Positions 4,568 to 31,931 of a DNA stretch of 32,000 bases are shown piece by piece; positions within the stretch are counted from its first letter, which is position 1, and the number at the start of each line of letters is the position of its first letter. Made by a program: the position numbers and the translations under genes. Below the pieces are notes generated by a model. It was not told the DNA's origin. It did not search any database and was given only the letters and a program-made list of their open reading frames with translations. The stretch covers positions 210,001-242,000 of the forward strand of contig SHMX01000003.1 in NCBI GenBank assembly GCA_008080745.1, in the 5' to 3' direction. Source of the stretch: Candidatus Thorarchaeota archaeon. Lineage in GTDB: Archaea; Asgardarchaeota; Thorarchaeia; Thorarchaeales; Thorarchaeaceae.

Positions 4568-5023
4568 CTATATCGGTTTTAAATTCCAGATTCTACCTCC
4601 CTCATAACCAACAACGATGAAGCAGATTATACATAATGCGTAGAACATGATATCCTTTCCCTCCAAAGGCAAGGATGCAAAGAAAAAGGTATAGAGAATC
4701 AACATGCTTACAATCAAAGCAACTAGGAAAAAGAAACGTGGAAGCAGAGTCTGCCCTATTCGAACAAAGAGAGAAAGAGAACCAACTCTTACTGTTCTTG
4801 TGATGAAATACTCTCCATGAGTATCTTTGTCCACAAGATTCAGTTCCATGAGTTTTGTTAGATGATGCTGAGCTAAACTAGGACTAGAGAAGCCAAGCTC
4901 CCTTTGAATCTCACGTACACCCATTTTTTCATGAGTAAGAAGGAGGGCATAGACACTCATGGTCCTGCCCTTGACGAGTTTGTAGATGATCTCTTTGTTC
5001 TCTTCATCCACGAATAACACCAT
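4568..5023 (-). CDS. Winged-HTH (ArsR-like) transcription regulator with two C-terminal TM helices
   Basis: MGVREIQRELGFSSPSLAQHHLTKLMELNLVDKDTHGEYF wHTH signature, followed by two hydrophobic helices. Confidence 0.75.
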   Translation of the reverse strand: MVLFVDEENKEIIYKLVKGRTMSVYALLLTHEKMGVREIQRELGFSSPSLAQHHLTKLMELNLVDKDTHGEYFITRTVRVGSLSLFVRIGQTLLPRFFFLVALIVSMLILYTFFFASLPLEGKDIMFYALCIICFIVVGYEGGRIWNLKPI

Positions 5024-5047
5024 TTCTTCTCTTGTATAGAACCTTAT

Positions 5048-5767
5048 TCATGCTTCGGGATAATCCACGTTGTTTGTTACGGTTGTGTATAGAGCGGTCA
5101 TGCCTGAATTTAGATGACCATCCTCGACTAGCCAATATCCATTGCCAATGTAACCTGTAACATCTGGATGACCGTTTGATCTGAATCCACTCCATGTTCC
5201 ATTTTGTATAAAGACCATCCCATCATCAGAGGTATATCCTATAAAGAAAAAGGAGTCATCATCAAAGAAAATATACATGTAGAGATCTATCGGCCAACTT
5301 GACGGAAAGTCATTAGGATGTGTCGAAGCAGCTTCCATCTTTCCGATGCCATTATTGAGTAAATCACCGTTTAGTGATTCATATGTGGTTTGATCAATTG
5401 AACCCTCACCAATCAAATCAGAGCTATAAGGTGCGAATAACACACTGATGTCCGCTCCTGTAGATGTCTGGTTGATGTAGATTCCATCTACAAAAGCAGA
5501 AGGTTCCGTTTGCTGATAGTATGTTGTGATATCTTCGTTGACTAAGGTATTATTGCATGTCCAATAAAAGATAACATCATCCCGTCTACTCTCAATATAT
5601 TCAACAGCCATTGCCCCAAAATCACCATTGGATGGAGTAGTGGGTGTTGTGGTTATATTCCCATTAGATTGCATAAGTGCAATAACAAGAATACCTGAGG
5701 AAATGATAATTGCGATAATTACAAGTGTAGAAACGGTTCTACTAATACCTGAACTGTATTCTTTCAT
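5048..5767 (-). CDS. Membrane-anchored extracellular protein with a class III (pilin-like) signal peptide-like N-terminus
   Basis: MKEYSSG-ISRTVSTLVIIAIIISSGILVIAL, a Thr/Pro linker, then a globular domain with several sequons. The ORF is solid; the pilin call is tentative. Confidence 0.6.
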   Translation of the reverse strand: MKEYSSGISRTVSTLVIIAIIISSGILVIALMQSNGNITTTPTTPSNGDFGAMAVEYIESRRDDVIFYWTCNNTLVNEDITTYYQQTEPSAFVDGIYINQTSTGADISVLFAPYSSDLIGEGSIDQTTYESLNGDLLNNGIGKMEAASTHPNDFPSSWPIDLYMYIFFDDDSFFFIGYTSDDGMVFIQNGTWSGFRSNGHPDVTGYIGNGYWLVEDGHLNSGMTALYTTVTNNVDYPEA

Positions 5768-5816
5768 GAGTTTATCACAAGATAGTATTCACAACAATGA
5801 GATATTACACTACGTA

Positions 5817-5833
5817 TTGAACAGCCTGTTCAA
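5817..5833. promoter_or_regulatory. Perfect palindrome TTGAACAG-C-CTGTTCAA, candidate operator
   Basis: 8-bp arms with a 1-nt spacer in the divergent intergenic region 5768-5889. Confidence 0.5.
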
Positions 5834-5889
5834 AGTATTGTACACTGTAAGACCAGAGTTATAACACAATTATAGAAGAATATCATAAG

Positions 5890-6186
5890 ATGCAGACTCG
5901 ACGTCAAAGAATAACAGAGTTATTGGAGTCGGTTGAAAATCCGATAACCACATCAGAAATCTGTCAAATTCTGGATATCCGAGAGAGATCACTGGTCACT
6001 GAAGATCTCAAACATATTGCCAAATCAGTTCAGAATGAGGGAAAACAGCTCATAGCTCGGACACCCATCTGTGGGAAATGTCAATATGAATTCATTGGTA
6101 GAAGAAGTACCAAGACACCATCTAGATGCCCCAAATGCAAATCCGAATGGATTCTTCCACCTTCTTTCATTATCATACAAAAATAA
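5890..6186 (+). CDS. Archaeal HTH plus zinc-ribbon transcriptional regulator (COG3357-like)
   Basis: TRRQRITELL...EDLKHIAKS followed by CGKCQYEF...PSRCPKCKSEWI. Confidence 0.85.
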   Translation: MQTRRQRITELLESVENPITTSEICQILDIRERSLVTEDLKHIAKSVQNEGKQLIARTPICGKCQYEFIGRRSTKTPSRCPKCKSEWILPPSFIIIQK

Positions 6187-6200
6187 TAGCAATTGTCCAG

Positions 6201-6509
6201 CTAATCATCAAACTTGTGAACACCTTTGATACCTGCACCCTCACGTTTGATATAGGTGACTCGGGAAACGACATAGTCAGAGAGACCGTATTCAGCTTCT
6301 TCTACATATCCTTCAATTACAACCGGGATACCCACACGGGGTAGAAATCTACATCGATCCATTGTATTCGAAGAAATTCTGACACTATAGGTCTTCTTTG
6401 TTTCAGGATCTTGAACAACTATTTGGGTTGAAGCATGCCATCTTCTTGCTGATATGCGCATTGCACTGCTTTTACCTACTTCACGAATGATTCCCTTAAT
6501 GACTGCCAT
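6201..6509 (-). CDS. Small OB-fold-like protein
   Basis: Start moved to ATG 6509 (GGAGGT Shine-Dalgarno overlaps the end of the upstream gene; 2-nt gap). VIKGIIREV...IVVQD...YSVRI...VGIPVVIEGYV strand pattern resembles an OB fold. Confidence 0.6.
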   Translation of the reverse strand: MAVIKGIIREVGKSSAMRISARRWHASTQIVVQDPETKKTYSVRISSNTMDRCRFLPRVGIPVVIEGYVEEAEYGLSDYVVSRVTYIKREGAGIKGVHKFDD

Positions 6510-6511
6510 GA

Positions 6512-7789
6512 TTAGACCTCCCATGGAGCGATAATTTTTCCATATCTTCCACCACCACCTGGAATATAATTAACCTCTCCTTTTCTGTACGCATCAATCA
6601 TTATAGATAATCGATCATTGTGTTCTTTGATAGCATCAATCGAACCCTTTGTTAGCACATGTACCTCGGTACCAATTGACTGGATTAGTTCATTGTAGAG
6701 TCCTCTAACAGATTTTGAACTGGTAGACTTTACACCAATAGCGGTCGATATTAAATCGAGAAGAGGTGGAATATAGAGATAGGGAGGACGATGAGAGGGT
6801 TTCTTACTTTCCAGTTCACCAATCATTCTAGCGCGGTCTCGTACCCCCAGACGCATCTTCTTTCCACAATCTGGACAAGATACTTTGCGATGATGGATTG
6901 CATCGATAATCTTCTTTGCTTCCTCATCATTGTTACAGCTAATATACACATTCAGTTCGTCAAACTCAGGAGGGGTATCACCTTCCCGAATGACGAGGGT
7001 CTTACGGCATGAAGAGCAGAATGATAGAAAATATTTTCCAAGACGCGGATTAAATCCAAGATTCAGGATAGGCTTTCTCCCACCTTCACGAATGACTGCC
7101 TTCTTGAGCTCGTCAAAGCTTGGATTCTTCATTTCAAATTGTACAAATTCTCTACCCAATTTGTTGGGAGAAGGTGAATGGGCGTCACTTGATGTAATAT
7201 AGGTTAATTCACGTAACTCAGGAATATAATCTGCGGTTTCACTATCCGCAGATAATCCCAGCTCGATGAAACGAATATATTTTGTTTCTGAACCGTAGCA
7301 ACTGTCAAGGCTATCATGTCGATTTTCTCTAAAGATTGCTTTGTAAGGTGTAAATGCATGTGCGGGACCTATTAATCCACCAACATCACGAACGTGACCT
7401 GCAATCTCCTCACCATTGAGATTGACTCTTGGACGCCCACCCCATTCATCATTTAGGTTAGGCGAGTCTGGCGCAATGAGGCTGCGTATTTTCTCAACCG
7501 ACTCCAGATCAGGAAGTAAGATTACATGATGAATAGATTCTGCATCTTCAAATTCAACAGTGGGAAGAAATACTACAGACTCGTATTCAAGATAGCCATT
7601 CTTTTTTACCAGTGTCTTTTGCAGATGGGCAAGCCAGTCAGGTTGTGTTGCATCCCCGGTCCCTAAAATCTCGATTCCTTTTTGCTTTGCACCCTTAGCC
7701 AAATTTGGTATTGTCATCCGATTACTTACTCCTATCGAATGCAGACTATGGATGTGTAAATCAACAGTATATTCGTTCAAGACGATCAC
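6512..7789 (-). CDS. endoQ: Endonuclease Q-like PHP-domain nuclease (TIGR00375 family)
   Basis: DLHIHS, GTGD, HHVI, GPAHAFTP, ELGLSAD, SDAHSP, LGREF, GKYF-C, CxxC...CxxC, GVRDR and PGGGGRYG motifs match the EndoQ family as I recall it. Confidence 0.8.
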   Translation of the reverse strand: MIVLNEYTVDLHIHSLHSIGVSNRMTIPNLAKGAKQKGIEILGTGDATQPDWLAHLQKTLVKKNGYLEYESVVFLPTVEFEDAESIHHVILLPDLESVEKIRSLIAPDSPNLNDEWGGRPRVNLNGEEIAGHVRDVGGLIGPAHAFTPYKAIFRENRHDSLDSCYGSETKYIRFIELGLSADSETADYIPELRELTYITSSDAHSPSPNKLGREFVQFEMKNPSFDELKKAVIREGGRKPILNLGFNPRLGKYFLSFCSSCRKTLVIREGDTPPEFDELNVYISCNNDEEAKKIIDAIHHRKVSCPDCGKKMRLGVRDRARMIGELESKKPSHRPPYLYIPPLLDLISTAIGVKSTSSKSVRGLYNELIQSIGTEVHVLTKGSIDAIKEHNDRLSIMIDAYRKGEVNYIPGGGGRYGKIIAPWEV

Positions 7790-16083: not shown

Positions 16084-16857
16084 TCAAATATCATAGATGA
16101 AAGAATCGACATTTCTCTTGATTTTATCTAGAGTTTCTTCATATTCTGATCGAATGGCATCGGCCCCCATGGAGGAATCAAAACCGGATCGCTCAACAAC
16201 CATCCATTCACTCATAATATCCTCATCGAGAAATTTGTTGAATTTGCGTTCATGAGTAGACATCACTTCCATCCGCTCAGGATTGATGTAACCACGAGTT
16301 TCAAAGGTTTCTACTAATTTACGATACATTGGACCATTCGCTCCACCAAGAATAAATCGAGCCCGCATAACACCAGAAATGTGTGACACTTTAATTTTCT
16401 GAACCATCTCACGATAATGAATGGTCCTGGGAACAGACGTATCGCCTTTGATTCTAGCTACAGGCCTTTCAGCAAGAATGTTACCCTTTTCCAGAACTAG
16501 CTGACGCAAAACTGTAACAATCTCTTCTTCTTCTCTGGAAGCTAAAGGATCAATGACTTCAGGATTGATTATATCTACTGCAGGAACAGGTTCGTCCATT
16601 CTCAGTTCGGTCGGGTCAAAAAGGAGAGCACATATAGGTTTGAGGATATCCATGCGTCGGTTACCACTCTCTGCAACACCTTTAAAGATACCCGGTCCGA
16701 TTAATCCAGATATCACTGTAGACCCACGTAACATAGACCACAATTGACGTGAAATAATTAGCACTTTTCCAGTCAGGTCAGCATCTCGGAAGATACCGAC
16801 ATCGTATTCAAATGATTCTACATCGAGTAGCCAGTAGAGTGGGGCTGTATCTATCAT
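16084..16857 (-). CDS. Hypothetical protein
   Basis: 257-aa ORF with a 4-nt ATGA overlap with the upstream gene; no recognised family. Confidence 0.7.
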   Translation of the reverse strand: MIDTAPLYWLLDVESFEYDVGIFRDADLTGKVLIISRQLWSMLRGSTVISGLIGPGIFKGVAESGNRRMDILKPICALLFDPTELRMDEPVPAVDIINPEVIDPLASREEEEIVTVLRQLVLEKGNILAERPVARIKGDTSVPRTIHYREMVQKIKVSHISGVMRARFILGGANGPMYRKLVETFETRGYINPERMEVMSTHERKFNKFLDEDIMSEWMVVERSGFDSSMGADAIRSEYEETLDKIKRNVDSFIYDI

Positions 16858-18038
16858 TCTGTTTTTGCCTCGTAAGCATATTCATCAATATATTCATAGA
16901 TTATCTGGACTACCAAGCTATTACGATTATCAGATGCAACCCCATTTAGTCTTTCTTCGGTCTTATCGGCTAATTCATCAAGAGAGGGTATATCCAGTTT
17001 CAGACGATCATTCAATTCTCGAATGCACATCATAACACAATCTTGTAGTGGTATTCCCTGATATATGAGAACTCGTACAACTCGCTCTATTCTTTCAGTC
17101 AGATAAGCGATACGTTCATCTCGGCTTCTACGTTTGGCTAAGTAAACATCACGCTCCAGAAAGTCGAAGGGAGACACCATATCTGGTTCCGTTTTCCCAC
17201 CACGTGTAGATCCAGCACCTACTTCGACAAAGGAGGATTTATCTCCACGACCAGTAGGTTTGGGAGCAATATGCAAGAGTAAATGAGAGAGAGCAGGTAT
17301 GGATAATGTGTTCAGCTCTGAGTCAAGGTCAGATATCAGAGTATCAAGTCGTTTCAATGAGGAATCAATAGTTGCAGACTCTGTAGGCCCACCCATTGCT
17401 TTACGCAGAATCCTGAAGAGTGCCTGACAACGCCTTCGTAAATGAAGCACTCTACCTTTGAGGGTTGCAGATTTCCATCTGGTTATGGCAGGTCCAAGAA
17501 ACATCAACGCATCCTCAGTATTTGATTTAGGATGATCACTTAGCCACGCCTCTACAACCGGAGCAAGGTATCCCTCAGCAAGCTTTGTTCTTGATGCAAC
17601 AACATGAATCGCCTTTTCCAATGAAATATTACTTTCATCAATTGCCCCTTCAAGGTTTGCTAACTCACGTAACTTGAAATCAAAATTACGTACGAAGCTA
17701 CCATAGACATATTCAATCCATCTGCCCTCCAGAAGGGCGAATTCCATAATATTACCGGGTATATTAGGAATCTCTTCACCAATAGAGGCTCTACGATTAA
17801 GCTCAGTCATGAAATACAGAATAGCATCTTTGAGTGACAGAATACCATCAAGGTTAATGAGATACGAAATCATAGCGATTTGAAGTGGACAGGAATATTC
17901 CTCTGCAATCTTCTTTGCTTCCACAACCGATATTCTCCTCGAGCGTTCTTGCAGGTTAGTATACTTCTCAGCGAATTCTCTGGTAAGTCTCTGGCGACTT
18001 GATACTGCAAGTTTTTCAAGGTCGGTTTCAGTCTGCAA
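16854..18038 (-). CDS. Hypothetical, predominantly helical protein
   Basis: Long ORF. Probable TTG start at 18038 with GAGGAG 6 nt upstream (track start is 18086). Confidence 0.7.
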   Translation of the reverse strand: MQTETDLEKLAVSSRQRLTREFAEKYTNLQERSRRISVVEAKKIAEEYSCPLQIAMISYLINLDGILSLKDAILYFMTELNRRASIGEEIPNIPGNIMEFALLEGRWIEYVYGSFVRNFDFKLRELANLEGAIDESNISLEKAIHVVASRTKLAEGYLAPVVEAWLSDHPKSNTEDALMFLGPAITRWKSATLKGRVLHLRRRCQALFRILRKAMGGPTESATIDSSLKRLDTLISDLDSELNTLSIPALSHLLLHIAPKPTGRGDKSSFVEVGAGSTRGGKTEPDMVSPFDFLERDVYLAKRRSRDERIAYLTERIERVVRVLIYQGIPLQDCVMMCIRELNDRLKLDIPSLDELADKTEERLNGVASDNRNSLVVQIIYEYIDEYAYEAKTE

Positions 18039-18171
18039 TGGATACTCCTCTATCCTGAATTTAACTCTCAATGGAGAGCCATGCAATTCTAACCTTGATT
18101 TGATAAAATATGTTTACTGTGTATACTCTCTTCGAAAAATCATAGGGTAATGATTGAGATTGTATCCTAAA

Positions 18172-18375
18172 CTACATAATAAATGCAAGGAGAAGGAAGT
18201 GGAGACCGAATCCCAGAAAAATAGCTCCAAACAAACCGGACATAATTACCCTAAATAAGGATAGATGACGACCGTGTTCAACATGGATGACTAGCCAGCC
18301 AAATGCCATCATACCAAAGATGATGTAAGCGGCTGCAAAGTATATGTACAGGGATTCAACGACTATCTGAAGCAT
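18172..18375 (-). CDS. Small two-TM membrane protein with a His-rich loop
   Basis: 67 aa, two hydrophobic helices flanking HVEHGRH; GAGGA upstream of the ATG. Confidence 0.65.
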   Translation of the reverse strand: MLQIVVESLYIYFAAAYIIFGMMAFGWLVIHVEHGRHLSLFRVIMSGLFGAIFLGFGLHFLLLAFIM

Positions 18376-18454
18376 TTGTTATTCCTCTTTTGTCCGGTAG
18401 GTATCTCTGCCATTAAGTAGTCAATTTAAACATCACGGTCGTCCAGCTATTGCA

Positions 18455-19216
18455 TTACACAAAGAACTCGTATTCAAATGAGTGCTCTTCTCCATCAATA
18501 TCGATGGTGCGAACGAGTTTTCCACGCTTCTTAGCTTGTTTCCGCTTCTCTTTGAAGGACATATTTGGATCGTCAGGGATCTCGATATCCTCTATATGAA
18601 GTAAATTCACTACGGAAATTGATTTGACATCTTCCGTAATTTTATCTTTTACATCAGGAATCAATTCATCGAACAGATAATCTTTGACCTCATCTGTATT
18701 ATCGAGTGCACCAGTACAGAAATTAGGGGCTTTAGCCTCCTCTTCATCAGCAACAGGTTTTTGTGGTCGAGCTTTGGTTTTTAGTTTCCAAGGCTTTTTA
18801 GCTGGTTTGGGACTTAAATCTAAGAGATAGAAAGTTTCAGGGTCCGCTAGATCCAATAATGCAGCAATATCATCTCTAGCTGCTTGCTCATTGATTTTGG
18901 CTTGGAATGTGAACGTACCACCCTTTTTCTTCTTCTTCTTAAATTCCAGAGGCATGTTTAGAGCAGCAAACTCTTCTCTTCTGTCATCATAAGTGATGAT
19001 GCTACCTTTGACTTTGTGAGACCCTTCTGGTCCAGTAGCCAGATATGTCTTAAGAATTGCCTTCTCTAAGTCCATATCAACTTTGAAAGTAATTCTTGAT
19101 GAAGTTATTCTCAATTCTGCACGTGGGCCTACATGCTCACCAATGCCAAACTTTACCAGTCTAGCATGAGCAAATTCATCAGCTTTACCATGGATTATCT
19201 TTGCTATCCAATTCAT
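18455..19216 (-). CDS. Lys-rich hypothetical protein
   Basis: 253-aa ORF, FKKKKKKGG basic patch, basic C-terminal segment FKEKRKQAKKRGKLVR. Confidence 0.7.
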   Translation of the reverse strand: MNWIAKIIHGKADEFAHARLVKFGIGEHVGPRAELRITSSRITFKVDMDLEKAILKTYLATGPEGSHKVKGSIITYDDRREEFAALNMPLEFKKKKKKGGTFTFQAKINEQAARDDIAALLDLADPETFYLLDLSPKPAKKPWKLKTKARPQKPVADEEEAKAPNFCTGALDNTDEVKDYLFDELIPDVKDKITEDVKSISVVNLLHIEDIEIPDDPNMSFKEKRKQAKKRGKLVRTIDIDGEEHSFEYEFFV

Positions 19217-21118: not shown

Positions 21119-21460
21119 TCAGTCAATAGGTCGAGTTGATAGTATCTCCTCAATACTAGAAGTGGGTAACGTAAATCCCTTGGTCCCCATTATTGTTAGA
21201 GACCTTTCTACTATATGACTAGATTTCTCCTGAAGAATCTCCGTGAGTTCTTTGAACTTATCTAAAGGCCCCTCGTAGACAGTAAATCCAGTGAACGGAG
21301 TACCAAATGCGTTACCTGCCTCCGTCACAATCTTGATTCCCTTTGGGAGATTTTTCTTAATATCCGCCCAATCTTTGAACCATTGGTGCTTCTCCTCATC
21401 AGTCATAGTCCGCAAGCGGTATAGCTGAAGATAGACGAATTCGGTTGCGCCGGTTGACAT
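21119..21460 (-). CDS. Small alpha+beta (ferredoxin-like / GYD-like) protein
   Basis: 113 aa with a beta-alpha-beta-beta-alpha-beta pattern. The fold call is tentative. Confidence 0.55.
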   Translation of the reverse strand: MSTGATEFVYLQLYRLRTMTDEEKHQWFKDWADIKKNLPKGIKIVTEAGNAFGTPFTGFTVYEGPLDKFKELTEILQEKSSHIVERSLTIMGTKGFTLPTSSIEEILSTRPID

Positions 21461-21491: not shown

Positions 21492-21529
21492 CGTAATGTA
21501 GGGTCAGTGCTAACCTCAAGGTGAAAAAA

Positions 21530-22765
21530 ATGGGCTTGAGAGCTTCCGAAAACAAATGGACTTTGATTACGTTATACTTTGTGACTTTAATCATGCGAGC
21601 TGCTTTCTATGCAACCATAGCAGTCATTCAGAGTAATTTCTACATGGGTGGCGAGCTTGTGGGTTGGGGAGCCTCCATGGTGTTAGCAATTTATCCGTTA
21701 GCAGAATTGAGCACAGTTTCATTCTTTGGATCATATAGTGATAAAGTAGGAAGGAAACCTATTCTGGTGGCAAGTCTATTTATCACAGCAACGGCTGCAT
21801 TCTTCTTTGCAATTTCACCCTTGGCTATTCTAGCCTTTGTGTTTGCAGCTCTCTTTGGAATTGGTGCAGCTTCAAAAGTGACTACCACTCTCTCGATAAT
21901 TGCAGATTGTTCCGGAGAAGATGACAGAGCTCGACTCATGGGATATTATGACCTGTCTACATTAATGGGACTTGCTGGAGGATATGGGCTTGGTATGATC
22001 CTCATTCAGTTTGGATTAGATGTGAATCTCATTCTTCTCGCTGCTGCTGCTGCATGTGCAATTGCTGGTTTCATTGCATATCTTATAATTAAGGAAACTA
22101 AGACTGTTGATCATCAAGAGGCCAGCATGATAGAATTACTGAGCAAAGTTGCTAGAGATAAGAGGATTCAGAAGATGATTCCTGTCTACGTACCTATCAT
22201 CTCGCTTTATGGACTTGTGATATCTAAAGCGGAACATATCTTGGAGTCTCATTTCAGCCTCGAAGCAACTGACATTTTGATTCTATTTGCAATGCTTGGA
22301 GGTTCGTTAGTTCTTGGAATTATCATCATGGGACATCTCTCAGATCATCTTAGAAAAAGACGTCCATTCATTGTTACCGGACTTATTGCTTTGGGAGGAT
22401 TGGCATTCCTCTTGGTTGCCAACGCTGAACACTTTGAGCAGTTATGGACAGTTTGGCCATTACTTCCGGTACTGGGATTTGTAACAGGAGGTTTTCCACC
22501 CGCAGCTATGGCATATCTCACCGATATCTCCGAGGCAGATGCAAGAGGAAGTACTATGGGCGTATACAGTATCTTCTTTGGTTCAGGAATGATTATCGGC
22601 CCCTTAGCCGGACAATTATTCTATGATACATGGGGATTGATTCTAGGCCTAGGATTCCTCGTAGTATTATTCATTTCCATTGCGTGCATTGGGACATATT
22701 TCTTACCTGAGGCACACGGACACGCTGTTGCAGTACCACCTCTGGAGCATAGTGAAAACGAATAA
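21530..22765 (+). CDS. Major facilitator superfamily transporter
   Basis: About 12 TM helices; motif A GSYSDKVGRKP and its repeat GHLSDHLRKRRP. ATG 21530 with AGGTGA upstream. Confidence 0.9.
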   Translation: MGLRASENKWTLITLYFVTLIMRAAFYATIAVIQSNFYMGGELVGWGASMVLAIYPLAELSTVSFFGSYSDKVGRKPILVASLFITATAAFFFAISPLAILAFVFAALFGIGAASKVTTTLSIIADCSGEDDRARLMGYYDLSTLMGLAGGYGLGMILIQFGLDVNLILLAAAAACAIAGFIAYLIIKETKTVDHQEASMIELLSKVARDKRIQKMIPVYVPIISLYGLVISKAEHILESHFSLEATDILILFAMLGGSLVLGIIIMGHLSDHLRKRRPFIVTGLIALGGLAFLLVANAEHFEQLWTVWPLLPVLGFVTGGFPPAAMAYLTDISEADARGSTMGVYSIFFGSGMIIGPLAGQLFYDTWGLILGLGFLVVLFISIACIGTYFLPEAHGHAVAVPPLEHSENE

Positions 22766-22842: not shown

Positions 22843-23976
22843 TTAACCACTGCGTCGTGAATAAATCAGAGATAAAACAACGATACTGGCAAGAAATATT
22901 CCAGCTCCGAGAAATAGCTCTGTTCTAAGAGGGATATCCTCCCAATTTCCAGTTGTCGTTGCAACGTTTGTTGTTGTGGTGGTTGTTGTGGTAGTTGAGG
23001 AAGACTCGGTTGTAGTAGCAGTTGTTTCCTCAGTGGTGGTTGTTGTCGTCTCTGTAGTGGTAGTAGTTGTTTCGGTGGTAGTTGTTGTTGTTGTTTCGGG
23101 TGCATTCCAGCCTGCAAGACTCGCTACTAGCCACCAGAAAGCTTTACCTTTCTGTTCACAACTGGTATAAGTCGTATGGCCTGCTTCACCCCCATTGAAA
23201 TCCTCGTGTTCAACAGGAATAGTATGGACCGTTTCTCCATCGTCATATTCGTATGTATTCTGAGAACCGTTACTCCAACAATCTAGATCCGCGAAATCAA
23301 ACAGAATCTTGTTATTTGATGTACAGTAATCACGAATCAGATTATTGTTCATCCAACGATTATATCCATCTGAGCCAGTACCTTGAGCGTTACAAGTCAT
23401 GTAAACAAAGGTGACGTTAGGATTCGCAGTTTCAAGGTCATTGATTATAGATAGATAGTCTTCTACCTCTTCTGTAGAATAATAGTTCAATTGGGTACAC
23501 CAAGACCATAGAGAAACATTTAGAGTTGGATTATCGTCCAAAGTACCTTGGGTTAGATCAATACCGCTCTGAGTTTCCCAATATTCATCAGGTGTAATGT
23601 AATTGTCTCCACCATTGTTATCCTGTCCATCAAAAATACAAAGTGAATCGGTAGTTTCAGGTAACGAACATATACCCCTACTTACATCAAAAGTTGAATT
23701 TTGAGACTCAATCCGATCAAGACCAGTTGTAATCTGACTTCCATGACTTGTATGGGCATAATGTATTATTACTGAATCTTGCGCTGCTTCAATCCACTCT
23801 TCAGGAATACTGTCGATATCAATACAGGTGTGATCTATTACGAGTCCACCTGGCCAATCAGCCAAATTATGGTCAATAGTAACTTGTCTTGGTTGGATTG
23901 TATTTGACAGCCCCAAAGACAGCAGTAGGGCAATTAGAATCGATACAATAATGTATGGCGTGCGTTTCAATTGCAT
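22843..23976 (-). CDS. Secreted cell-surface protein: globular domain, Thr-rich stalk and C-terminal anchor
   Basis: Signal peptide, globular domain (HYAHTSHGSQ ... DFADLD ... GH), Thr-rich linker, TM helix ending YSRRSG. Confidence 0.75.
   Translation of the reverse strand: MQLKRTPYIIVSILIALLLSLGLSNTIQPRQVTIDHNLADWPGGLVIDHTCIDIDSIPEEWIEAAQDSVIIHYAHTSHGSQITTGLDRIESQNSTFDVSRGICSLPETTDSLCIFDGQDNNGGDNYITPDEYWETQSGIDLTQGTLDDNPTLNVSLWSWCTQLNYYSTEEVEDYLSIINDLETANPNVTFVYMTCNAQGTGSDGYNRWMNNNLIRDYCTSNNKILFDFADLDCWSNGSQNTYEYDDGETVHTIPVEHEDFNGGEAGHTTYTSCEQKGKAFWWLVASLAGWNAPETTTTTTTETTTTTTETTTTTTEETTATTTESSSTTTTTTTTTNVATTTGNWEDIPLRTELFLGAGIFLASIVVLSLIYSRRSG
22951..23097 (-). repeat. Low-complexity Thr-rich coding repeat (E-T6/7 units)
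   Basis: 49 codons, 36 of them Thr, with mixed ACN codon usage. Confidence 0.85.
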
Positions 23977-24912: not shown

Positions 24913-26880
24913 ATGGCTGATGATATGCTCTGGCTCGGTTTTCATTTGGATGAAAAAGGTAAACGAACTGATAAAAAATTCGAAATAAGTCAAGACCTCC
25001 TGAGGAGACACGGTGGTGTATTTGGCTCTACAGGTTCTGGAAAGACGGTATTGAGTAAGGTGATTCTTGAAGAAGCTGCTTTGAAAGGTATTCCAATTAT
25101 CGCATTCGATCCGCAGGGGGATATAGCTTCTCTTATGCTTCCTGGAGACCCTAAAGAATTGGAGAAGAAGGGTGTTCCACCAGAACGTCTCAAGAAATAT
25201 ATGGACAAGGTGGTAGTCCGAGTATACACTCCAGCAAGTAGTAAAGGACTAGCAATATCAATTAATCCACTAAAATTGCCTGATAAGAACGCGGATCCAG
25301 ATGATATTGTGAGACTGATGGATAATTCAGCTCGTACGCTCACCAAAGTTCTCATGAAGGTTGGTGGACTCTCTCGATCCTGGGAGGCGAAATCGTTTGC
25401 TGTGATTTATGAACTTCTAAGAAACATCTGGGAGAGTGAGCAGGACCTTGGCGGTCTTGGTGACTTGGCAAATATGCTTGTTGCGCCAGTGGAAGAGATT
25501 GGAGTGGATTTGGAACCATTCATGAAAGAGTCGGAGAGACAAACGTTGGCTACAAGAATACGGACTCTAACTGTTGGTTCATCACAACTGTTATTCAAAG
25601 AAGAAGGACAGATCGACTTTGATGAATTGACTCAACCAGTTCAAGGAAAGACACCAATCAATGTCATCTTTCTTAAAACACTCCGAAGTGAAGAAGAGAA
25701 GCACTTCTTCATATCGATTGTTCTGAATCAATTATACTCTTGGATGCTAAAGCAGGGGTATCAAGAAGATCCAAGAATGATACTATTCCAAGATGAAGCT
25801 GCGCCATTTATCCCCGCCGGAATGAAGGCACCAGGACCAAAGGAAACCTTCCTACTACTATTCAGACAAGCTCGAAAATATGGAGTCGAATGTCTCATTG
25901 CAACTCAGAGCCCGAAAGATATCGATTACAAGGCTTTCGAACAATTCAACACTATAGCATCTGGACGTATCAGCAGCGACCAGTCACTAAAAGTACTTGA
26001 GAGAATTCTTGAACCGATTGCAGGTGAAAAGGAGTCGGAGGAGATAATTAGCATGCTTCCAGGTCAACAGACTGCTTCGTTCATCTTTTCTTCTGCAGAC
26101 CTTAAACCTAAGGTGAACCATATAGGTGTTCGTTGGCTCTTAACCAATCATATCACTCTCACTGAGAAAGATGTTCAGCAGCATATGAAGGAACTGAGAA
26201 AACAACAAGAGAAAATCCTCAAAGAGATGGAAAAAGAGAGGCTCAAAAGAGAGAAGGAAGAAGAAGAGCGTAAAAAGAAATTAGCAGAGGAACGAAAAAA
26301 GGCTGCTGACGCTAAGAAACGTGAAGAAGAACGTCGAAAAGCAGAAGAGGAGAAACGTCGTAAAGAGGAGGAAGCACGTAAAGCCAAGGAAAAGGAGCTT
26401 GCGGCAAAGAAAGCCAAATTTGCCAAAGCAAAAGATGAAGAGCCAGTCTTTGACACCAAGGGAAAGGCTGATGCGGTATCTTACGACGACCTTGTAAACG
26501 GATTTATTGCACGTATAGAAAGGATAGCAAGTACAACCTTTGGTCTACCATTTTTGCGAGAGCTGATCAAACGAGGACAACTCCACTATGAGAAGGCACT
26601 CTCTTATTATCTCAAAGAAACCCGTGAAGCAATCAAACAGGGACTTGCTCGAAAAGAGAAAATCGAGATTGAAAAACGCGGCAAGAAAAAGAAGGTCATG
26701 TACATCATATATGACTTTGAGCACGTGCTAAATCAAGTCATCCAAAGTATGGGTATTAAAGAACCCGAATATGTGGATGAAAAACGATTGAAGAAACGAT
26801 TTGAGGAATTGGTAAGAACCGCAAAGAAGAATTCATTCCTAGAGAGAATCGCTCTTGGTCAACCATTCCTTGAGTTTTAA
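24913..26880 (+). CDS. HerA/FtsK-superfamily ATPase (DUF87/DUF853-like) with a charged helical segment and C-terminal domain
   Basis: HGGVFGSTGSGKT, FDPQGD, ILFQDEA, ARKYG, ATQSP; E/K/R-rich segment at about 26185-26440. Confidence 0.85.
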   Translation: MADDMLWLGFHLDEKGKRTDKKFEISQDLLRRHGGVFGSTGSGKTVLSKVILEEAALKGIPIIAFDPQGDIASLMLPGDPKELEKKGVPPERLKKYMDKVVVRVYTPASSKGLAISINPLKLPDKNADPDDIVRLMDNSARTLTKVLMKVGGLSRSWEAKSFAVIYELLRNIWESEQDLGGLGDLANMLVAPVEEIGVDLEPFMKESERQTLATRIRTLTVGSSQLLFKEEGQIDFDELTQPVQGKTPINVIFLKTLRSEEEKHFFISIVLNQLYSWMLKQGYQEDPRMILFQDEAAPFIPAGMKAPGPKETFLLLFRQARKYGVECLIATQSPKDIDYKAFEQFNTIASGRISSDQSLKVLERILEPIAGEKESEEIISMLPGQQTASFIFSSADLKPKVNHIGVRWLLTNHITLTEKDVQQHMKELRKQQEKILKEMEKERLKREKEEEERKKKLAEERKKAADAKKREEERRKAEEEKRRKEEEARKAKEKELAAKKAKFAKAKDEEPVFDTKGKADAVSYDDLVNGFIARIERIASTTFGLPFLRELIKRGQLHYEKALSYYLKETREAIKQGLARKEKIEIEKRGKKKKVMYIIYDFEHVLNQVIQSMGIKEPEYVDEKRLKKRFEELVRTAKKNSFLERIALGQPFLEF

Positions 26881-27765: not shown

Positions 27766-28344
27766 TTGGTAGAGACCGCTTTCATTTACAAGATATGTGT
27801 AATTGGAGATGCATCAGTTGGTAAGAGCAGCACCATTCTCCGATGGTCTCAAGACACATTTAATGAGCAGTATCAAGTAACCGTTGGAGTTCAACACTAC
27901 ACTCGAAATATTACTGTTTCATCAAAAGGAGAAGAATTTGTAATCAAGCTTATAATATGGGATATGGCAGGTCAAGAGATGTTCAAACATGTACGTCCAA
28001 TCTTTTATCGTGCATCAAGGGGAGTCATATTGATGTTTGATATTACCAAACCTGAAACTTTTGAGAATTTACCCACCTGGGTTAATGAGGCAGTTGATAA
28101 TATTGGAACAAAAGTGCCCTTCCTTCTTGTCGGAAATAAGAGTGATCTGACACCTCACAGGGTAGATAAATCCCATGCATTACAATATGCAGAAGAAATC
28201 GAAGGTAGCTTTATTCTCTCAAGTGCTAAGACAGGTGATAATGTGGGAGATATTTTTGGACAGATTACAACAATGATACTTGAATACAACTCTACAGAAA
28301 AAACCCAAAATCCAAGTCATACCAAATCTACATGGATGAGATAA
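27766..28344 (+). CDS. Rab-like small GTPase (Ras superfamily), paralog 1
   Basis: G1 GDASVGKS, G2 VTVGVQH, G3 WDMAGQE, G4 NKSD, G5 SAKTG; TTG start. Confidence 0.92.
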   Translation: MVETAFIYKICVIGDASVGKSSTILRWSQDTFNEQYQVTVGVQHYTRNITVSSKGEEFVIKLIIWDMAGQEMFKHVRPIFYRASRGVILMFDITKPETFENLPTWVNEAVDNIGTKVPFLLVGNKSDLTPHRVDKSHALQYAEEIEGSFILSSAKTGDNVGDIFGQITTMILEYNSTEKTQNPSHTKSTWMR

Positions 28345-28465
28345 TATCACAATTCAGCCCATAATCTGTTATTGAACAGTATTTGACGCTCTAATATTTA
28401 ATTTTAAAATTTAAGCAATCATTTTATCTATAAGATATGTTATAGTATGACTCGTTGGGAATTAG

Positions 28466-29026
28466 TTGAGCATTGCATATGTTTACAAAGTATGTGTCAT
28501 CGGAAATGCATCGGTAGGAAAAACTAGTACTATTATTAGATGGGCAAAAGGTTGGTTTAGGCAAGATTATCTCTTGACTGTAGGAGTACAACACTATGCA
28601 AAAATATTCGATATAGACCATCAAGGAGAGTCTGTAAGTATAAAGCTCATTTTATGGGATTTTGCGGGTCAAGATATGTTCAAAGAGGTACGTGCCAAGT
28701 TCTATGATGGAGCTAAAGGATTAGTATTGATGTGTGATATCACCAGAAAAGAAACATTTCATGCATTGCCAAAATGGCTTCAAGAGGCTTCTGAAAACAT
28801 TGGTCAGGAGGTACCATTAGTTCTGGTTTCAAATAAGGCAGACCTTCCAGATAAGGAAGTGAGTGTGACCGAGATCAAACGATATGCAAAATCATTGGAT
28901 GCTCCTTGTGTGATTAGTAGTGCAAAGACGGGGTCAAATGTACAGGACGTTTTCAGACTGATTGGAAAAAGAGTTCATGAACGGAGAATGAATCATACCA
29001 CTAGTAGACATGATACCTTCAGATGA
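28466..29026 (+). CDS. Rab-like small GTPase (Ras superfamily), paralog 2
   Basis: G1 GNASVGKT, G2 LTVGVQH, G3 WDFAGQD, G4 NKAD, G5 SAKTG; TTG start. Confidence 0.92.
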   Translation: MSIAYVYKVCVIGNASVGKTSTIIRWAKGWFRQDYLLTVGVQHYAKIFDIDHQGESVSIKLILWDFAGQDMFKEVRAKFYDGAKGLVLMCDITRKETFHALPKWLQEASENIGQEVPLVLVSNKADLPDKEVSVTEIKRYAKSLDAPCVISSAKTGSNVQDVFRLIGKRVHERRMNHTTSRHDTFR

Positions 29027-30422: not shown

Positions 30423-30776
30423 CTAGTCACCGTTATTTTCAAGCAGGGGAATAACGCAGATGAATCTGAAGTTTCCGTTCCCTTCAGTATTGTCATATCC
30501 GTGGGGAGCTTCAGAGGGGACAAATATCACATCATCTTTCTTAGCGGGTCCTTCAAAATCACCAAGTAATTTTGCTGTGCCTTCTAAAACAAATATTTCG
30601 TGTTCTTCAGGATGCGTATGGATAGGAATGATACCACCCGGACCAATATTGAACATTCGCATCGCATAATTCTTGGCCCCTGTTCGACGTCCAACTAACC
30701 ATCTAACCGTAACATTTCGAGAACCAGGAAAATTAACTTCTTGTTCTTCGCGTTCTTGATAGTTTATGCAATACAT
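30423..30776 (-). CDS. Cupin-domain protein
   Basis: IPIHTHPEEHEIFVLEG...DDVIFVPSEAPHGY, the two cupin metal-binding motifs. Confidence 0.9.
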   Translation of the reverse strand: MYCINYQEREEQEVNFPGSRNVTVRWLVGRRTGAKNYAMRMFNIGPGGIIPIHTHPEEHEIFVLEGTAKLLGDFEGPAKKDDVIFVPSEAPHGYDNTEGNGNFRFICVIPLLENNGD

Positions 30777-30959: not shown

Positions 30960-31481
30960 ATGACAGAAGAAGATACCTATCTGCGGGCAAAGCTCACGGA
31001 AATCAAAGGTTCTATCGATAGACTAACAGATTTATTGAATCGAATGATAGAGGTGATTGCAAAAATAACTGAAGTTGAAACAGCTACCTCGGATTTGGCT
31101 TTAGCAGTTGCTGCAAATAGTGAGAAGATTGATGAAGTTTTGAAGAAGATTTCAAGTATATCGATTGCTGCTCCAGCTGGAACTACAGCAGGTGGAACCC
31201 TATCAGACAAACAAGCGGTCTCATCATTACAAGCAGTTCTTGAGAATTTGGAATCACAAATTCGAGAAGGAGTTATTGCCAGCGATCTTGCTGTCAAGAT
31301 TGGTGAAGCAGCCGATGCTATGGAGCAGCGAGGTGGTACAGGTCCACTAATTTTGAAAATGAACAGATGGGGCAGAATCCTCAAGACATATGGTCGAGTT
31401 GATACAATTAGTCCCACTGACCTGAAAAAACTCAGAGACGACCTCAAAGAATGGCAAAAAGAAGTTGCTCAACTTCGATAG
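30960..31481 (+). CDS. Coiled-coil protein with a C-terminal four-helix domain resembling ESCRT-I Vps28-CTD
   Basis: Start moved to ATG 30960 (GGGG upstream), 173 aa. Heptads over residues 8-64, Ala/Gly/Thr linker, four predicted helices with KMNRW...DTIS..DL..L.DDL. The ORF is solid; the Vps28 call rests on a recalled alignment. Confidence 0.6.
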   Translation: MTEEDTYLRAKLTEIKGSIDRLTDLLNRMIEVIAKITEVETATSDLALAVAANSEKIDEVLKKISSISIAAPAGTTAGGTLSDKQAVSSLQAVLENLESQIREGVIASDLAVKIGEAADAMEQRGGTGPLILKMNRWGRILKTYGRVDTISPTDLKKLRDDLKEWQKEVAQLR

Positions 31482-31577: not shown

Positions 31578-31931
31578 TTGCCTATTGTGACGGCTGAAAC
31601 TAGAGATGAATTTTCTCAAGTTCTTTCTAAGATTGAAAAAATACCTTCCCCACATAAGGAAAATGTCTTGGATATTTGGGAACGTTGGCTAGAGAGTAAA
31701 CCACAACAACCATACTTTGAAGATTGGTTTATCTTTGCACAACAATATGATAATCAACAGGAACTTTTTACAGAAACGCGAGTATACATTAGAATGGTTC
31801 GTAATGCTTTGAAAGATCTAGAAACACCCAAGACGATATATCGAAAGGTGAGAAAAGCGATTGTTTCTATAGCAAGTTTCTTCTTCGTCATTTTTCTTGC
31901 AATCTCACGATTTGCTCGAGCAGGGGATTAA
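31578..31931 (+). CDS. Small helical protein with a single C-terminal TM helix (tail-anchored topology)
   Basis: Soluble helical N-terminus, then AIVSIASFFFVIFLAIS. Start uncertain (TTG 31578 or GTG 31587). Confidence 0.65.
   Translation: MPIVTAETRDEFSQVLSKIEKIPSPHKENVLDIWERWLESKPQQPYFEDWFIFAQQYDNQQELFTETRVYIRMVRNALKDLETPKTIYRKVRKAIVSIASFFFVIFLAISRFARAGD

Follow-up and report, generated by a model that had tools for sequence, protein, structure and literature searches.

We consider here the gene at 30960–31481 in a 32,000-nucleotide stretch of Candidatus Thorarchaeota DNA, located on contig SHMX01000003.1 (called C3 below); the whole of this stretch is referred to as the window. On the plus strand the frame comprises 173 codons with zero internal stops. 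The encoded protein, called CC-Vps28_C after its coiled coil and a C-terminal domain that is related to that of Vps28, has three parts, which are listed here together with the gene and the basis of each assignment:

30960..31481 (stop codon included), plus strand: gene of the CC-Vps28_C protein (P0001), 173 residues; uninterrupted open reading frame and homologues
30966..31169, plus strand: N-terminal amphipathic heptad helix, residues 3–70; AlphaFold2 and periodicity
31170..31199, plus strand: Ala/Pro/Gly/Thr linker, residues 71–80; AlphaFold2 confidence and alignment
31200..31478, plus strand: C-terminal four-helix bundle, residues 81–173, divergent homologue of the Vps28 C-terminal domain; AlphaFold2 and profiles

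The gene at 30960–31481 is genuine and conserved. Among 5.8 billion proteins searched by word index, 224 homologues were found at E ≤ 0.001, and the 119 other homologues that are listed have identities of 59–87%, all with E ≤ 1.3e-57. Among the matches listed, the named homologues are all proteins from Asgard metagenome-assembled genomes, mostly labelled Candidatus Thorarchaeota, and their annotations are hypothetical or generic coiled-coil names throughout. A longer frame starting with TTG at 30741 was also considered. It runs into the divergent cupin gene and lacks conservation, and since the homologues are mostly 170–178 residues long and have the same start methionine (common start M-[ST]-E-E-D-T-Y), it was rejected as the gene. 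Two marine sediment metagenome runs are listed with the gene stretch, both of them DNA, and no RNA runs are listed.

The C-terminal part was proposed, in an earlier note made from the letters of the window, to be a four-helix bundle like the C-terminal domain (CTD) of Vps28. [quoted passage not shown] In the AlphaFold2 model of the protein, obtained with a 58-sequence alignment and having a mean predicted local distance difference test score (pLDDT) of 83, the helices of the bundle are found at 81–100, 107–123, 128–142 and 152–172. For the profile comparison, alignment A3 contains 18 canonical Asgard Vps28 sequences collected by PF03997 (50–67 bits, full length), and A5 is a C-terminal-domain alignment of the family, including the distant members and the paralogues. 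Comparing A5 with A3 by hhalign gives a probability of 88.7% and E 2.5e-6 over 82 collinear columns, that is, the entire bundle, CTD to CTD. A second run gives 87.6% and 3.5e-6, and the reversed-sequence controls give P values of 0.32 and 0.11. Moreover, the hidden Markov model (HMM) of canonical Asgard Vps28 matches an Odin-like family member across the CTD with a conditional E of 3.5e-7, and the family profile and PF03997, the latter above its cut-off, converge on one C-terminal segment of a 788-residue DDRGK/UFL1-like/PCI protein. Searched as an HMM against the PDB, A5 finds 2j9w_A at E 0.036 (positions 14–86). On account of these profile matches, the collinear full-domain alignment and the clean reversed controls, the C-terminal domain is, at the level of sequence profiles, a divergent homologue of Vps28_C.

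The structural comparison points in the same direction. Vps28-CTD structures rank first in two structural searches, and 92 of 94 residues superpose on the Vps28 CTD at 2.4–2.5 Å, with the same topology and length as in Vps28 (PF03997; CTD structures 2G3K, 2J9U, 2J9V and 2J9W). The top match of Foldseek against the PDB is the Xenopus Vps28-CTD (2j9w), at an E of 0.12 that alone is not significant. The positions in common with canonical Asgard Vps28 are the G-x-x-A turn that joins helices 1 and 2 (G104-x-x-A107), W-x3-L in helix 3 (from W137), D-x-K-K-L where helix 4 begins (from D154) and the final Trp (W165), and these motifs are kept in the family. The ungapped C-terminal register that the earlier note had proposed, with W137 on the helix-3 Trp followed by D-x-K-K-L and W165, turns out to be the register of hhalign against canonical Asgard Vps28. 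The earlier note had named as evidence against the proposal that profiles and structures show no match, or that the helix topology differs; we find neither.

It should be considered whether the bundle could resemble the Vps28 CTD simply by convergence on an up-down four-helix fold, in a generic helical protein with an unrelated structural role. The non-significant E-values of Foldseek and the silence of Pfam would agree with this. However, sequence profiles as well as the fold tie the two domains; the alignments are collinear over the full domain, the reversed controls are clean, and the motif positions listed above are held in common; we judge convergence to be very improbable. The HPt and CheA-P1 bundles can be set apart as well: the family has no sequence-profile link to them and no conserved phospho-accepting histidine on helix 2, and there is no conserved histidine among the invariant positions of the family alignment (I15, I19, M29, G104, A107, W137, Y144 and D154).

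The N-terminal helix has heptads of the coiled-coil type, as the earlier note had claimed. The AlphaFold2 model has a single continuous helix over residues 3–70, with pLDDT values of 81–95 over residues 1–60 and ca 68 at 61–70. The hydrophobic a/d positions are L8, L12, I15, I19, L22, L26, M29, I33, I36, V39, L46, V50, I57, L61 and I64, and nearly all orthologues have Val, Ile, Leu, Met or Phe at these sites. At period 3.5 the Fourier power reaches 2.8, beyond all 5000 shuffles (maximum 1.57), and residues 8–64 contain eight heptads, where at least four were taken to define a coiled coil. Searching the PDB by full-length sequence and by profile gave nothing beyond generic coiled coils (sigma-1, haemagglutinin and designed proteins among them). 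The stretch APAGTTAGG, described earlier as a flexible linker, indeed has pLDDT below 50 at residues 70–78; linker sequence and length differ among homologues, and the paralogues bear large insertions there. With its long heptad helix the protein is similar to the stalks of Vps23/Tsg101 and Vps37, and it may form a stalk-like coiled coil. However, it contains no UEV or steadiness box, and the likeness seen is that of the heptads.

The family was also followed across genomes. It is found in all 26 sampled genomes of the GTDB family of the source, and the scan of 151 sampled Asgard genomes with the family profile gave 53 matches. It brought up distant members at E 1e-10 to 1e-14 in Odin-like genomes, further members in four more Asgard families and two extra paralogues in every Thorarchaeota genome. 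The coiled coil plus Vps28_C family is Asgard-wide, and genomes of the Thorarchaeota type have three paralogues of it. When 1.84 billion cluster representatives were scanned exhaustively with HMMER, only 12 clusters matched, and the family is therefore narrow at the sequence level. The matches of an ESM Atlas feature search are Asgard clusters only, and the AFDB neighbours of the protein include archaeal proteins with no visible lineage.

Asgard proteins of a comparable kind have been published. Makarova et al. (2024 mBio, PMC10936438, cited here and below from its accessible text and tables) report stand-alone Vps28_C (cog.004115) as well as forms with adaptin-appendage, longin, TPR and PCI domains, and these accessory proteins are presumed to dock to ESCRT-II without core ESCRT-I. 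The 173-residue protein likewise carries a Vps28_C domain without a steadiness box (SB), joined to another module. Since such proteins are already known, the CC-Vps28_C family adds another, highly divergent member to this class, although it is not named in the accessible text and tables of that paper. It differs from the published members in consisting only of a coiled coil and Vps28_C, in being far more divergent in sequence, and in being triplicated in Thorarchaeota, where each copy has a conserved neighbourhood of its own. It also differs from Asgard Vps28, which according to the same source is usually encoded with vps22- and vps23-like genes, in that its gene lies apart from these.

We consider it probable that CC-Vps28_C is a soluble two-module adaptor, an ESCRT accessory of the published Asgard Vps28_C class, and neither a Vps28 nor a self-sufficient ESCRT-I. 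The heptad helix of ca 68 residues would self-associate or pair with another helical protein, the flexible linker would supply reach, and the Vps28_C bundle, by analogy with eukaryotic Vps28, would dock an ESCRT-II-type or zinc-ribbon partner. Candidates for the latter in the source genome are SB-Vps22, Vps25 and Znr_PH_CC_SB. A tail-anchored protein encoded next to the adaptor could put it on a membrane (see below).

Several observations weigh against this reading. Pfam VPS28 (PF03997) does not match the protein even at E ≤ 10, the only hits being sub-threshold coiled-coil noise, and a profile built from Thorarchaeota sequences only gives a weak comparison with A3 (11.7%, P 0.0025), though again CTD to CTD. 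The gene is located on contig C3 and the ESCRT cluster of the genome on contig C1. The Odin-like, f15, f21, f7 and f19 family members have unrelated neighbours, and the docking partner remains a candidate. Concerning the first of these points, the protein stays under Pfam detection, the gathering score not being reached, and a PF03997 scan of the entire source genome leaves the 30960–31481 locus unreported. The genome scan also returned a second weak PF03997 match at C3:454818, which proved to be a 465-residue coiled-coil protein with no clear Vps28 character and was discarded.

The ESCRT cluster on contig C1, at ca 432–438 kb, encodes Znr_PH_CC_SB, Snf7, Vps4, Vps25 and SB-Vps22. The first of these is a 518-residue protein with a weak Vps23_core match, which fits the Znr_PH_CC_SB type. 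The EAP30/Vps22 protein of the source genome (L001:970-1728, minus strand) begins with the steadiness-box motif ELYASIATLD, which corresponds to PF03997 positions 2–71; this SB-Vps22 fusion has been described before (PMC10936438, Table S3), as have the Asgard BAR-SB and Znr_PH_CC_SB proteins. The earlier note had stated that no ESCRT-II/III or Vps4 gene lies in the window. Pfam scans, which covered the genes surrounding CC-Vps28_C and the listed open reading frames of at least 100 residues other than 21521-22765, gave no ESCRT family; several of these frames had no match at all. Several consecutive frames of 100–425 residues that are Pfam-less at E ≤ 1e-4 lie, all on the minus strand, at 4568-7789, 16084-19216, 21119-21460 and 22843-23976.

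The earlier note had gone further and suggested that this single gene could be a minimal, possibly ancestral ESCRT-I, with a homo-oligomer supplying both the stalk and the Vps28 CTD; it would then replace ESCRT-I in Thorarchaeota. The distribution of canonical Vps28 lends this some appeal, because at E ≤ 1e-5 PF03997 finds it in 96 of the 151 sampled Asgard genomes and in none of the 26 of the source family. Published surveys likewise give Thorarchaeota ESCRT-II, ESCRT-III and Vps4 but no recognisable Vps28, and no Thorarchaeota Vps28 is among the constructs listed in Hatano et al. 2022. Furthermore, a stalk-like coiled coil and Vps28_C are present in one protein, and the Vps22 of this family itself bears the Vps28-type N-terminal hairpin (PMC10936438, Table S3). 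However, where Vps28 has the N-terminal core/steadiness-box hairpin for ESCRT-I, the 173-residue protein has its 68-residue heptad helix instead. No steadiness-box hairpin is present that could enter a headpiece, the ELYA-C-IATLD motif of the Vps28 N-terminus is absent, and the profile alignments to canonical Asgard Vps28 never reach its N-terminal domain, covering the CTD only. A UEV or other cargo-binding module is lacking too, there is no linkage of the gene with the ESCRT cluster, and according to PMC10936438 Thorarchaeota already own the SB-containing, ESCRT-I-like Znr_PH_CC_SB and BAR-SB proteins.

Phyletic complementarity, with the family replacing Vps28, was also examined and had to be rejected, as Odin-like and several other Asgard lineages hold both the family and full-length Vps28, so that it is no substitute there. 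From this co-occurrence it follows that the family is a separate paralogous one, neither an ancestral nor a replacement Vps28. Neither the single-gene nor the ancestral version of the proposal agrees with these results, and we regard a minimal or ancestral ESCRT-I as improbable; a primordial one-gene ESCRT-I is not what the finding shows.

Returning to the accessory adaptor, its possible membrane attachment can be discussed on the basis of the neighbouring genes, the relevant ones in the window being:

24913-26880, plus strand: HerA/DUF87-type ATPase, syntenic with the CC-Vps28_C gene throughout Thorarchaeota
27766-29026, plus strand: two Ras/Rab-family GTPases in tandem, flanked by the B3_4 and HAD genes
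31578..31931, plus strand: tail-anchored membrane protein gene, 117 residues, directly downstream of the CC-Vps28_C gene and co-directional with it; a conserved neighbour

The locus is conserved across Thorarchaeota, in the order MFS transporter, membrane protein, HerA/DUF87 ATPase, B3_4 (minus strand), usually HAD (minus), cupin (minus), CC-Vps28_C (plus), a small gene (plus) and a DHH protein. The small downstream protein has a helical domain at residues 1–84 and a transmembrane segment at ca 94–111 (AlphaFold2 pLDDT 87, helix 85–116), that is, a four-helix cytosolic domain followed by a C-terminal transmembrane helix, and its family is ca 112 residues long. Its gene is single-copy, adjoins the CC-Vps28_C orthologue in 22 of the 25 genomes that have both, and is confined to the Thorarchaeota order, bar weak partial matches elsewhere. 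It has no Pfam match and no informative fold match. A complex prediction of CC-Vps28_C with residues 1–93 of the tail-anchored protein gave a score of 0.01, which is neither support nor a verdict and is neutral on binding. The conserved adjacency points to the tail-anchored protein as a candidate partner and membrane anchor of CC-Vps28_C.

The HerA/DUF87 ATPase has a Lys/Glu-rich coiled coil at approximately residues 430–520 and a C-terminal domain that belongs to no family. Its link to CC-Vps28_C is conserved in Thorarchaeota only; the upstream genes of similar size elsewhere are UvrC in two lineages or Pfam-less (L075), and none is HerA-homologous. In the two lineages with UvrC, which are outside the source family, uvrC lies directly upstream of the family member and co-directional with it (L086:4075-5916 and L078:4016-5815).

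The two extra Thorarchaeota paralogues are as follows:

C4:84672-85331, in the cassette C4:83511-86822 (L004): paralogue ii, ca 230–270 residues, with a coiled coil, a long insert and a Vps28_C-like bundle
C1:207857-208294, in the same-strand run at L025: 3894-8210, minus strand (region C1:203000-216000): paralogue iii, 369 residues, with a repetitive coiled coil of ca 240 residues and a Vps28_C-like end

The highly conserved cassette of paralogue ii has a Ras-family GTPase divergent upstream; convergent downstream are, usually, a CBS-domain gene and another Ras-family GTPase. Both GTPases bracket paralogue ii in 22 of 24 loci, which come from many genera of Thorarchaeota (including L012, L014, L087 and L089-L108). 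One could thus imagine that the Vps28_C bundle binds Ras/Rab-like GTPases or their regulators in trafficking, as an adaptor or effector with no ESCRT link. This would also suit the published Asgard Vps28_C proteins, which often bear longin domains tied to GTPase regulation (PMC10936438), and the position of the Rab pair in the window, 1.9 kb from the CC-Vps28_C gene, on which the earlier note had remarked. The pair, however, whose members are 50% identical to each other, is absent at the orthologous locus in all five other Thorarchaeota genomes with enough flank, and because of this absence it looks like a lineage-specific insertion. Its members are only 28–31% identical to the GTPases flanking paralogue ii, on which ground a duplication of that cassette was rejected as their origin, and the source genome has ca 15 Ras-family GTPases, so that proximity by chance is plausible. 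For these three reasons the proximity of the pair to the gene is probably incidental, and the link drawn to it is not upheld. Family members outside Thorarchaeota have no GTPase neighbours, and we consider a purely GTPase-linked role unlikely.

Paralogue iii lies in a same-strand run which in the source genome consists of BAR-SB, a D-aminoacyl-tRNA deacylase, paralogue iii and a 279-residue protein without a family. The BAR-SB protein is 411–441 residues long and has weak BAR and VPS28 matches, and paralogue iii is within ca 3 kb of it in six further genomes.

CC-Vps28_C shows that a Vps28_C domain does occur in Thorarchaeota after all, hidden in a family of hypothetical proteins that Pfam misses, and the three paralogues are candidates for linking cargo or membranes to ESCRT-II in these organisms. 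One can speculate, tentatively and with more doubt than confidence, that the Thorarchaeota Vps28 has been taken apart, with the SB hairpin now on Vps22 and BAR-SB and the docking bundle on the three coiled-coil paralogues, every one of them connected with a membrane system of its own, namely the tail-anchored protein, the pair of Ras/Rab-like GTPases and BAR-SB, respectively. If this were true, and if the bundles still dock ESCRT-II, there would be an archaeal circuit in which GTPases and membrane anchors steer ESCRT recruitment, a forerunner of the way in which Rab GTPases and ESCRT are coupled in eukaryotes. The parts most worth following are the Thorarchaeota-specific triplication and the GTPase-bracketed paralogue ii, where the genomes of the closest prokaryotic relatives of eukaryotes may tie an ESCRT-derived module to Ras/Rab-like GTPases.

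Finally, the 788-residue protein mentioned above, from another Asgard family (L080:6902-9268, minus strand), has DDRGK, E3_UFM1_ligase-like and PCI domains and ends in Vps28_C. The PF03997 match is 24.7 bits, which is barely above the cut-off. The architecture suggests that a UFM1-like system is linked to ESCRT, and several genomes of that family encode proteins of ca 790–800 residues that match Vps28_C in the same way.
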